DNA of 64,000 nt from Escherichia coli (GTDB taxonomy: Bacteria > Pseudomonadota > Gammaproteobacteria > Enterobacterales > Enterobacteriaceae). Positions 1 to 3,964 of the stretch are shown one piece after another (position 1 is the first letter of the stretch; each line of letters opens with the position of its first letter). The stretch is from assembly GCF_003018115.1 (NCBI RefSeq), contig NZ_CP027457.1, one strand, 5' to 3'. Both the position numbers and the translations under genes were made by a program. A model generated the notes under the pieces. It saw nothing but the letters and a program-made list of their open reading frames with translations, was not told the DNA's origin and did not search any database.

Positions 1-2
1 GC

Positions 3-1079
3 GCTGCCGCCGGGTATTATGCAACCCGCGCCGGTTTAAACGTGCTTATGACCGACGCCCATATGCCACCACATCAACACGGCAGCCACCACGGCGATAC
101 GCGATTAATTCGCCATGCTTATGGTGAAGGCGAAAAGTATGTCCCGCTGGTCCTCCGCGCGCAAACGCTGTGGGATGAGCTCTCCCGCCACAACGAAGAT
201 GATCCTATTTTTGTACGCTCTGGTGTCATTAACCTTGGCCCGGCTGACTCCGCATTTCTCGCCAACGTCGCCCACAGCGCCGAACAGTGGCAACTCAACG
301 TTGAAAAGCTCGATGCGCAAGGGATTATGGCCCGCTGGCCAGAAATACTCGTCCCGGACAACTACATCGGCTTATTTGAGACTGATTCCGGTTTTTTGCG
401 CAGCGAACTGGCGATTAAAACCTGGATCCAACTGGCGAAGGAAGCGGGCTGTGCGCAACTGTTCAACTGCCCGGTCACCGCAATTCGTCATGACGATGAT
501 GGCGTAACTATTGAAACGGCTGACGGTGAGTATCAGGCGAAAAAAGCGATTGTCTGCGCGGGAACATGGGTAAAAGACCTGCTCCCGGAGCTGCCTGTCC
601 AGCCCGTACGTAAAGTATTTGCCTGGTATCAGGCCGATGGCCGCTATAGCGTGAAGAATAAATTCCCGGCGTTTACCGGTGAACTGCCCAATGGCGATCA
701 ATATTATGGTTTTCCGGCAGAAAACGACGCGTTGAAGATTGGTAAACATAACGGAGGCCAGGTTATCCATTCAGCGGATGAACGTGTTCCGTTTGCGGAA
801 GTGGCCAGTGATGGGTCAGAAGCCTTCCCGTTCTTGCGCAATGTATTGCCGGGTATCGGTTGCTGCCTGTACGGCGCTGCCTGCACCTATGATAATTCGC
901 CTGACGAAGATTTTATTATCGATACCCTACCCGGCCACGATAATACACTGCTCATTACCGGCCTGAGTGGGCACGGTTTTAAATTTGCGTCAGTTTTAGG
1001 GGAAATAGCTGCCGATTTTGCGCAAGACAAAAAAAGCGATTTTGATTTGACGCCATTCAGGCTTTCCCGCTTCCAATAA
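3..1079 (+). CDS. solA: N-methyl-L-tryptophan oxidase, 5' end outside window
   Basis: Frame open from window start to stop at 1079; translation [27 protein letters not shown]... is FAD-oxidase-like; conserved neighbourhood yceO-yceJ-yceI. Confidence 0.88.
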
Positions 1080-1088
1080 TCATCATTA

Positions 1089-1114
1089 CGGCCTCCAGAA
1101 TGAGGCCGTTTTTA
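1089..1114 (+). terminator. Rho-independent terminator after solA
   Basis: Stem cggcctc / gaggccg with 6-nt loop followed by ttttt. Confidence 0.6.
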
Positions 1115-1126
1115 CAGGAGTATTTA

Positions 1127-1240
1127 ATGCGTCGGCTGTTGCACTATCTCATCAATAATATTCGCGAGCATCTGATGCTTTATCTTTTTCTCTGGGGATT
1201 GTTGGCAATTATGGATCTGATCTATGTGTTTTATTTTTAG
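1127..1240 (+). CDS. yceO: small membrane protein YceO (37 aa)
   Basis: ATG 1127 to TAG 1238-1240 encodes [37 protein letters not shown]; too short for the ORF track; expected position between solA and yceJ. Confidence 0.7.
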
Positions 1241-1500
1241 TTTTCCGCACTGACATAAACTGACAAATATTTAATCTCCCTTTCATTTAGCGTGAAAAAT
1301 TGAATGAGATTATTCCTGCTTCTACAGCACTCACCAGACATCTCTGATGCTGAACCCACTAAACTTATGAAGATTCTTTCATTATTAATTCAAAATTATT
1401 GAAATAAAAATAAATATCATTCAATTTGTTATTTTTGTGTTGCAATTCATTCTCCGACACGCCATTTTCTTTCTCTCGCAAATTCGTTTTGGATGCACTT

Positions 1501-2067
1501 ATGTCATTCACAAATACCCCTGAACGCTATGGTGTTATATCTGCGGCCTTCCATTGGCTAAGCGCAATTATTGTCTACGGCATGTTTGCTTTAGGTCTGT
1601 GGATGGTCACGCTCAGTTATTACGATGGCTGGTATCACAAAGCACCCGAACTGCATAAAAGCATCGGTATTTTGTTAATGATGGGGCTGGTTATTCGCGT
1701 TCTGTGGCGTGTCATATCTCCACCGCCGGGTCCGCTGCCGAGTTATTCGCCCATGACTCGTCTTGCCGCAAAAGCTGGACATCTCGCATTGTACCTATTG
1801 CTGTTCGCCATCGGCATCAGCGGCTATCTGATCTCAACTGCCGATGGTAAACCGATCAGCGTTTTTGGCTGGTTTGACGTCCCCGCGACCCTTGCCGACG
1901 CTGGCGCACAGGCAGACTTTGCCGGTGCCCTGCATTTTTGGCTCGCGTGGAGCGTCGTAGTACTGTCCGTTATGCACGGATTTATGGCCCTGAAGCATCA
2001 TTTCATCGATAAAGACGACACTCTGAAGCGCATGCTGGGAAAGTCGTCATCTGACTATGGAGTATAA
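1501..2067 (+). CDS. yceJ: cytochrome b561 family protein
   Basis: 188 aa from ATG 1501 (MSFTNTPERYGV...), multiple hydrophobic helices; track ORF 1426-2067 has a 25-aa upstream extension that I do not accept. Confidence 0.85.
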   Translation: MSFTNTPERYGVISAAFHWLSAIIVYGMFALGLWMVTLSYYDGWYHKAPELHKSIGILLMMGLVIRVLWRVISPPPGPLPSYSPMTRLAAKAGHLALYLLLFAIGISGYLISTADGKPISVFGWFDVPATLADAGAQADFAGALHFWLAWSVVVLSVMHGFMALKHHFIDKDDTLKRMLGKSSSDYGV

Positions 2068-2070
2068 AAA

Positions 2071-2646
2071 ATGAAAAAAAGCCTGCTTGGTTTAACCTTC
2101 GCGTCCCTGATGTTCTCTGCCGGTTCAGCGGTTGCCGCCGATTACAAAATTGACAAAGAAGGTCAGCACGCCTTTGTTAACTTCCGCATCCAGCATCTTG
2201 GCTATAGCTGGTTATATGGCACCTTTAAAGATTTCGACGGTACTTTTACCTTTGATGAAAAAAATCCAGCTGCCGATAAAGTGAATGTGACAATTAACAC
2301 CACCAGCGTCGATACTAATCACGCCGAACGTGATAAACATCTTCGCAGTGCAGATTTCCTCAATACCGCAAAATATCCACAGGCAACATTCACCTCCACC
2401 AGCGTGAAGAAAGACGGTGACGAACTGGATATTACCGGCGATCTGACGCTGAATGGCGTAACCAAACCCGTCACGCTGGAAGCGAAATTAATTGGTCAGG
2501 GCGACGACCCGTGGGGTGGTAAACGAGCAGGCTTTGAGGCCGAAGGCAAAATTAAGCTCAAGGACTTCAATATCAAGACAGATTTAGGTCCAGCTTCTCA
2601 GGAAGTGGATCTGATTATTTCAGTGGAAGGCGTACAGCAGAAGTAA
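2071..2646 (+). CDS. yceI: periplasmic YceI-family protein
   Basis: 191 aa with N-terminal signal peptide [22 protein letters not shown]; 3 nt after yceJ stop. Confidence 0.9.
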
Positions 2647-2687: not shown

Positions 2688-3740
2688 TTATTCTGTTGGA
2701 TCAGGAATGCCCAGTGTTGTATTCAGACGTCCACGAGACTTATTAAAGATCTTATTGCCATTTTCACGTCCTGCCCGACGGCGTCGCTGTTCTTCTGGCG
2801 GTAACGCGCTTTCTTCGCAGCAAATCTCACTACAACAACCTTTGTATTTTTCCGCACATACTGGACACTGAATAAACAGCAGGTGGCAGCCATCATTTTT
2901 ACAGTTGGTATGGCTGTCGCACGGCGCACCGCACTGGTGGCAATGCGCAATAATCTCATCAGTTATACGTTCGCCCATCCGCTCGTCAAAAACAAAATTT
3001 TTGCCAATAAAACGCACCGGCAAGCCCTGCTCGCGCGCCCTACGGGCGTATTCAATAATTCCGCCCTCGATATGCCAGACTTTATTGAATCCGTTATGTT
3101 TCATCCAGGCACTGGCCTTTTCACAACGAATGCCGCCGGTGCAGTACATGACGATTTTTTTATCTTTATGTGCCTGCATCATCTCGACTGCTTTTGGCAG
3201 CTGCTCACGGAAGGTATCTGCTGGAATTTCCAGCGCGTTTTCAAAGTGCCCCACTTCATACTCATAGTGGTTACGCATGTCGATAAACAGTGCATCGGGA
3301 TCGTCAAGCATGGCGTTCACTTCCGCCGCTTGCAGATACTCACCAACATTGCTGGCATCAAAGTGAGGATCGTCAATACCGTCGGCAACGATACGATCGC
3401 GGACCTTCATGCGCAGTACCCAGAAGGATTTCCCGTCATCATCCAACGCGATATTCAGGCGTAAGCCATCTAAAGCCGAGTCGAAGGCATAGAGCTGCGC
3501 GCGAAATGTTTCAACATTGCTCGCAGGTACGCTGATTTGCGCGTTAATGCCCTCATGCGCCAGATACACTCGCCCAAAAACATTCAGCGCGGTAAACAGC
3601 TGATATAAAGCGTCACGGGTCGCCTTAGGATCGGCGATGTGGAAATACTTATAAAACGAAATGGTGGTTCGCGGTTCGCTCTCAGCCAACATTTTGGCTT
3701 TTAACGCGTCGTTGGAAATGCGGTTGTGTAACACTGGCAT
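2688..3740 (-). CDS. trhO: rhodanese-domain tRNA uridine(34) hydroxylase
   Basis: 350 aa from ATG at 3740 ([16 protein letters not shown]...), rhodanese motif [10 protein letters not shown] and C-terminal Cys-rich tail; track ORF extends 18 aa further upstream. Confidence 0.88.
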
Positions 3741-3964
3741 GGTGTACGATTCCTGCGAGATGGGAAAGTAAAAATCCGCGGCATGATATAGCAATTATCG
3801 ATAATTAACATCCACATATTTTACGCTACATTTGCGCATTAAAAATTATTTGTTATTTACAAGCGCGGCAATTTCGCCCAGTCTTCAGCCACAAATTTTG
3901 GTTGCGGGCGAAAAAATGCGACAATACATACAATTGCCCGAATAGGTTGAAAAACAGGATTGAT

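Follow-up and report, generated by a model that had tools for sequence, protein, structure and literature searches.

The short interval between solA and yceJ in Escherichia coli raises the question of whether it is purely regulatory DNA or whether it also holds a protein-coding gene too small to appear in a routine ORF listing, and, if there is such a gene, where it begins, how it comes to be expressed and what its product may do. It was studied here as part of a window of 64,000 nucleotides, that is, the whole stretch of DNA analysed (contig NZ_CP027457.1 of RefSeq assembly GCF_003018115.1), to which positions given below refer unless another record or locus is named. The original prediction, that a 37-codon gene, yceO, encoding a short conserved membrane peptide is to be found here, was made so that the interval should not be mistaken for purely regulatory DNA, and the results described below show this caution to have been well placed.

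Identity of the reading frame and coding constraint

An intact plus-strand ORF (ATG CGT CGG ... TTT TAG) comprising 37 codons and a stop lies exactly where yceO had been placed, between the end of solA and the ATG of yceJ (Table 1). The same frame is also open from a further ATG 9 codons (27 nt) upstream, which yields a longer version of 46 aa (1100..1240). At either 37 or 46 aa the gene falls below the default cut-off of 60 aa used for the ORF listing, just as had been suggested to account for its absence from the ORF track. The size of such a frame is in itself no evidence of anything, since the first 3 kb of the window contain 49 ORFs of at least 20 aa; what raises yceO above chance is the combination of its match to DUF2770, its retention as an ORF by 79 of the 80 enterobacterial genomes compared and purifying selection that is specific to the frame.

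Comparison with the annotated gene, which had been proposed as a check, gives a clear result as to identity and a divided one as to length. Positions 1000-1520 are 100% identical to E. coli K-12 MG1655, and of 5426 complete E. coli genomes all but two (5424) contain this stretch. The RefSeq/PGAP CDS WP_001253418.1 (“YceO family protein”, 114 nt) has exactly the coordinates of the 37-codon ORF, while the curated K-12 record (yceO, b1058, NP_415576.1; NC_000913.3 1119307-1119447) is of 141 nt and 46 aa. In that record the gene lies on the minus strand, the ATG of the 46-aa form being at 1119447 and that of the 37-aa form at 1119420. Residues 1-36 of the shorter product match the Pfam model DUF2770 (PF10968) over its entire length (model positions 1-36 of 36), with a score of 79.9 bits against a cut-off of 25 and an E value of 1.3e-22; NCBIfam has no model matching either the 37-aa or the 46-aa form. 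The window thus carries the gene of the YceO/DUF2770 family (PF10968; b1058), the DNA, the peptide and the position between solA and yceJ all being identical, and the curated K-12 record differs in its start model only, giving 46 aa where the present evidence, PGAP and Pfam give 37. This is a known gene: it is annotated and has a Pfam family of its own, and published studies have tagged it, deleted it and detected its product. Taking gene identity and the 37-codon start jointly, it can be said with considerable confidence that this ORF encodes YceO, a protein of 37 residues belonging to the DUF2770/YceO family of Enterobacteriaceae.

Table 1 Features in the first part of the window, in order of position.
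Feature	Position	Strand	Basis
solA (N-methyl-L-tryptophan oxidase), 3' 1079 nt; 5' end outside window	1..1079	+	ORF 42..1079; RefSeq and K-12 annotation
solA intrinsic terminator: stem ACGGCCUC/GAGGCCGU, 8 bp, 6 G-C pairs; loop CAGAAU, 6 nt; U-run	1088..1113	+	
Upstream ATG in the same frame, start of the 46-aa model in the curated K-12 record; native use improbable	1100..1102	+	
Shine-Dalgarno AGGAG, 6 nt before ATG 1127	1116..1120	+	Read from sequence
yceO CDS, 37 codons and TAG	1127..1240	+	PGAP CDS, DUF2770, homology start, dN/dS, AlphaFold2
Direct repeat TGACA-N5-TGACA, CTGACATAAACTGACA, 10-bp period	1251..1265	+	17-genus spacer alignment
Probable yceJ promoter: TTGCAA, 17-nt spacer, CATTTT, within CGCCATTTT	1440..1468	+	Conserved blocks, 17-genus alignment
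yceJ (cytochrome b561 homologue)	1501..2067	+	ORF; RefSeq and K-12 annotation
yceI	2071..2646		ORF in first 3 kb
trhO, convergent	2688..3794	-	ORF in first 3 kb

An exhaustive HMMER search of 1.84 billion representative proteins returned just 38 relatives at E ≤ 1e-3, with identities of 50-100%. A scan using one genome per species, in which loci were retrieved with the pattern NN[IV]REH[FL]M, gave 80 loci from about 25 enterobacterial genera, all of them from Enterobacteriaceae except for one from Yersinia. In 79 of these the ORF is preserved at a length of 36-39 codons, the exception being Salmonella enterica subsp. arizonae (2501-2569 of that locus), where the frame is cut short by a stop at codon 23. 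Variability among the 80 loci follows the codon pattern, entropy being highest at position 3 and lowest at position 2 (0.78, 0.26 and 1.30 bits for positions 1, 2 and 3, respectively). Pairwise dN/dS has a median of 0.137, synonymous sites being close to saturation, and the pooled pN/pS ratio is 0.29 in frame as against 0.84 and 2.6 in the shifted-frame controls. These results show yceO to be a genuine protein-coding gene on which purifying selection acts. A lack of the peptide in related genomes had been named in advance as the outcome that would speak against the gene; in the event the homologue search, the 79 intact loci and the evidence of selection all show it to be conserved.

At the level of individual residues, there is no variation at N10, N11, R13 and D30, and conservation reaches at least 90% at E14, H15, M17, Y19 and W23. 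Within the 80 loci the retrieval pattern itself accounts in part for the invariance of N10, N11, R13, E14, H15 and M17, although the independent HMMER matches agree with it; D30 and W23 lie outside the pattern. YceO has the length of about 37 residues and the conserved core MRR..NNxREH..W..D of the family.

Frameshifted or C-terminally altered alleles of yceO are seen in some E. coli and Salmonella-like entries (P0086, P0091, P0097, P0098 and P0105), and these, together with the premature stop in S. enterica subsp. arizonae, suggest that the gene is dispensable in some lineages. An apparent fusion of SolA to YceO (P0116, P0121) was considered and rejected: P0116 derives from a JGI metagenome contig (Ga0486023_0099, 1072-2264; locus L083) showing an apparent in-frame SolA-YceO read-through, in which not only solA but also trhO and lpxL are in fragments, and which was therefore put down to an assembly or indel artefact.

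The start codon and the solA terminator

Gene models for yceO disagree between databases, curated K-12 and UniProt-style entries giving 46 aa and those named “YceO family protein” by PGAP 37 aa. (In one probiogenomics paper YceO is said to be “exclusive” to one member of a pair of E. coli strains, probably through inconsistent annotation.) The computed average masses of the two forms are 4719 Da (37 aa) and 5897 Da (46 aa), or 4747 and 5925 Da, respectively, when formylated.

The conserved extent of the gene, as read from the alignments, begins at ATG 1127. The DUF2770 model starts at the Met of the 37-aa form, leaving the 9 extra codons outside it, and when distant homologues are aligned the similarity begins at this same Met in every lineage; such N-terminal extensions as gene callers have added show no mutual relationship. 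Within the set of 80 loci, the -9 codon is ATG only in E. coli and three further Escherichia loci, while three other Escherichia loci (that is, three of the six that are not E. coli) have TTG there, and elsewhere the codon is either absent or blocked by a stop, many loci and genera having in-frame stops 1-8 codons upstream of the conserved ATG. The two codons also differ in the calculated duplex with the anti-Shine-Dalgarno sequence, which is worth -6.9 kcal/mol for ATG 1127 as compared with at best -1.7 kcal/mol for ATG 1100, and an SD-like purine tract accompanies the conserved ATG across the 80 loci (median -4.55 kcal/mol against a background of -2.0). ATG 1100, for its part, lies within the loop and 3' arm of the hairpin of the solA terminator.

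This hairpin (1088-1109) has a calculated RNA folding energy of -16.3 kcal/mol and a z score of -2.7. A custom scan found a hairpin with a T-run at the same position in 64 of the 80 loci, made up from 50 distinct stem sequences; a simple consensus terminator scan missed the solA hairpin, probably because the first U was counted as part of the stem. That the hairpin is kept while its stem is spelled in so many ways implies that the 27 nt upstream of ATG 1127 are conserved as RNA structure rather than as codons.

The competing proposal is that the native E. coli product is the 46-aa protein initiated at ATG 1100, whether alone or alongside the 37-aa form. The frame is indeed open from 1100, NC_000913.3 annotates 141 nt, work from the Storz laboratory uses the 46-aa form, many genomes of E. 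coli and Shigella have 46-aa entries, and expression of the 46-aa ORF from a plasmid gave a detectable 11-residue N-terminal tryptic peptide (PMC12529367). However, the plasmid construct (in pBAD24) used the ribosome-binding site of the vector, so that the N-terminal peptide is silent as to the native start. Beyond this, ATG 1100 has no SD sequence of its own and is buried in a terminator hairpin of some -16 kcal/mol, the 9 extra codons have no counterpart in other genera or in the Pfam model, half of the non-coli Escherichia loci have TTG in place of the ATG, and such conservation as the 27 nt do show is explained by the terminator, the stem of which varies by compensatory changes across genera. 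The supplement to the Stringer preprint, consulted for start-site evidence, has no entry for yceO. Considering these points together, a native 46-aa product seems improbable, and ATG 1127 is very probably the native start, the model beginning at ATG 1100 being an annotation artefact; an Escherichia-specific ATG that happens to fall inside the solA terminator hairpin would then have given rise to the 46-aa annotation. The figure of 37 codons in the original prediction is in this respect better supported than the 46-codon version adopted by K-12 curation and UniProt. Two practical consequences are that the curated K-12 record probably places the start 9 codons too far upstream, and that targeted mass spectrometry assays based on the 11-residue N-terminal peptide, like constructs made with the 46-aa ORF, may misrepresent a native protein of 37 aa.

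The terminator also bears on how yceO is transcribed. In 79 of the 80 loci solA lies upstream of yceO on the same strand, at a median distance of 57 nt, and the end of the terminator stem is separated from the yceO ATG by a median of 22 nt. A consensus scan of 900-1600 found no promoter-like site on the plus strand, and the Adams 2021 tables contain only a site internal to solA, far from the solA-yceO junction. A sigma-70 promoter for yceO in the 3' end of solA or in the hairpin was also sought by eye and rejected; the loop is the only place available for a -10 element, and its sequence, CAGAAT, has no matching -35 element and is not conserved in other genera. With a start codon some 14-22 nt beyond the terminator and no visible conserved promoter in between, it appears reasonably likely that yceO is transcribed mainly from solA transcripts that read through the solA terminator, and this would explain the very low level of the protein: the product of a chromosomal YceO-SPA fusion can be seen by western blotting, at least 10,000-fold below the level obtained from an induced plasmid (PMC12529367, where the chromosomal strain is credited to Hemm et al. 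2008). In having a canonical hairpin and U-run between solA and yceO, with the yceO SD sequence and ATG directly after it in an order that is conserved across genera, the arrangement resembles those operons in which an internal intrinsic terminator sets the ratio of upstream to downstream expression, the proposed read-through being here deduced from the anatomy.

Predicted structure and possible function

The description of YceO as a membrane peptide agrees with both of the structural predictions made. Residues 1-15 have a mean Kyte-Doolittle hydropathy of -0.63 and a net charge of +2, and are amphipathic with a hydrophobic moment of 1.94, while residues 16-37 have a mean hydropathy of +2.05. 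AlphaFold2, using an alignment of 35 sequences, returned a single continuous helix for residues 2-36 with a mean pLDDT of 95; a profile search of the PDB found no solved relative. On these predictions YceO is likely to be a single α-helix in which the basic, amphipathic segment 1-15, containing NNxREH, is cytoplasmic or lies on the membrane surface, while the hydrophobic segment 16-37, containing W23 and D30, spans the inner membrane, the N-in, C-out orientation following from the positive-inside rule. In that case the NNxREH motif would be situated at the interface with the cytoplasm, and Asp30 would lie in the outer leaflet.

MgrB, MgtS, AcrZ and CydX are small, single-pass inner-membrane regulators of enterobacteria, and provide a comparison. 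With them YceO shares a length of no more than 50 aa, one predicted transmembrane helix (the hydrophobic stretch 16-37 and the AlphaFold2 helix being of membrane-spanning length), low abundance, a stress phenotype and a tendency to be missed by ORF cut-offs; it differs in having neither a sequence relationship to any of them nor a known partner or mechanism, so that the comparison is to be taken as a working analogy and not as family membership. Proteins of this type are named among the small proteins detected in the study in which native YceO was itself detected by top-down mass spectrometry (PMC12529367). As regards phenotype, PMC12997748 includes yceO among the acid-stress small proteins, citing Hobbs et al. 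2010 for this, and a study of 2',3'-cNMPs found it to be up-regulated together with acid-resistance genes (PMC8765455).

By extension of the analogy, YceO might bind to and modulate a larger membrane protein, and so contribute to the acid-shock tolerance reported for the deletion mutant; this can be put forward tentatively, as a possibility that is itself rather less likely than otherwise. Synteny does not suggest a partner, the product of solA being a soluble flavoprotein and yceJ being absent from 14 of the 80 loci. A more specific version would have YceO made only by read-through of the solA terminator, its dose thereby tied to that of solA, and working with SolA itself (for instance by tethering it to the membrane or modulating it) and not with the products of the downstream neighbours. 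What recommends this is that the order of solA stop, terminator, about 22 nt and yceO start is kept in 64-79 of the 80 species, even where yceJ and yceI are missing; it is nonetheless a doubtful proposal. Were it true, the surface of interaction would be made up of the invariant juxtamembrane motif NNxREH together with Asp30 within the membrane.

The yceO-yceJ spacer and its neighbours

Two elements of the spacer between yceO and yceJ stand out in an alignment covering 17 genera. The first is the direct repeat TGACA-N5-TGACA, which begins 11 nt after the yceO stop codon and is near-invariant across the 17 genera in a spacer that has otherwise diverged; the motif has three matches in the window where 0.47 would be expected. 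It looks like a pair of candidate tandem half-sites for a response regulator of the OmpR/PhoB type, or alternatively like tandem -35-like boxes. The second is the pair of conserved blocks TTGCAA and CATTTT, separated by 17 nt and lying roughly 35-60 nt upstream of the yceJ ATG. The consensus scan made no call at this position; the blocks probably represent an activator-dependent promoter for yceJ, a reading that is put forward as inference.

The second of these elements bears on the suggestion that yceO is a leader ORF, the translation of which regulates yceJ and yceI, and not a gene for a functional protein in its own right. Such a role might be thought plausible in that no terminator is called between yceO and yceJ, that 66 of the 80 loci have yceJ next, on the same strand, and that the length of the spacer is conserved (207-298 nt). 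However, the obligate linkage to yceJ-yceI that one would look for in a leader or uORF is not seen, yceO being kept beside solA without these genes in Klebsiella, Raoultella, Kluyvera, Buttiauxella, Pluralibacter and E. albertii. Purifying selection acts strongly on the amino acids along the whole length of the peptide, which would be unusual for a leader, the gap of 260 nt carries an apparently separate promoter for yceJ, and tagged YceO accumulates as a protein (PMC12529367). Among papers mentioning yceJ/yceI or yceO, a search for co-regulation turned up a large deletion list and a weak entry for yceJ-yceI in a Cpx array, with nothing on yceO. A role purely as a leader is accordingly judged highly improbable.

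More improbable still is that YceO is a hydrophobic peptide akin to a type I toxin and held in check by an antisense RNA, despite the fact that it is small, hydrophobic and helical and has a very low native level. An Rfam search of 900-1600 gave no significant match (the sole one, to a lncRNA, scored 16.5 bits against a cut-off of 60 bits), and the only promoter-like site on the minus strand, at 1424-1395, lies about 150 nt beyond the 3' end of yceO. The gene is single-copy, syntenic and part of the core genome, unlike typical toxin loci, which are mobile and multicopy, and its arabinose-induced overexpression was carried out as a matter of routine, with toxicity not reported (PMC12529367). 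By this indirect test, neither of the hallmarks of a type I toxin-antitoxin system, an antisense sRNA and toxicity on overexpression, is in evidence.

Finally, that the ORF is simply an open frame that has arisen by chance in regulatory or terminator-flanking DNA and has no functional product, as might be argued from the abundance of short chance ORFs, the frameshifted alleles in some E. coli and the premature stop in arizonae, and the extremely low abundance of the native protein (PMC12529367), is effectively already refuted by a Pfam E value of 1e-22, an ORF intact in 79 of 80 species, a dN/dS of 0.14 with saturated synonymous sites and the detection of the protein both by western blotting and by top-down mass spectrometry (PMC12529367).

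Some minor points concerning the downstream region may be added. Across the loci scanned (L003-L082) the spacer between yceO and yceJ, which in the window occupies 1241-1500, has a median length of 261 nt within its range of 207-298 nt, and most of its sequence has diverged. At the loci from Klebsiella and the other taxa named above in which yceJ and yceI are absent (L028, L058, L061-L063, L067, L069, L071-L073, L075, L080 and L004), yceO and trhO converge with no gene in between; the longest ORF for trhO in K. pneumoniae, ending at 2600 of that locus, overlaps the 3' end of yceO at about 2614.
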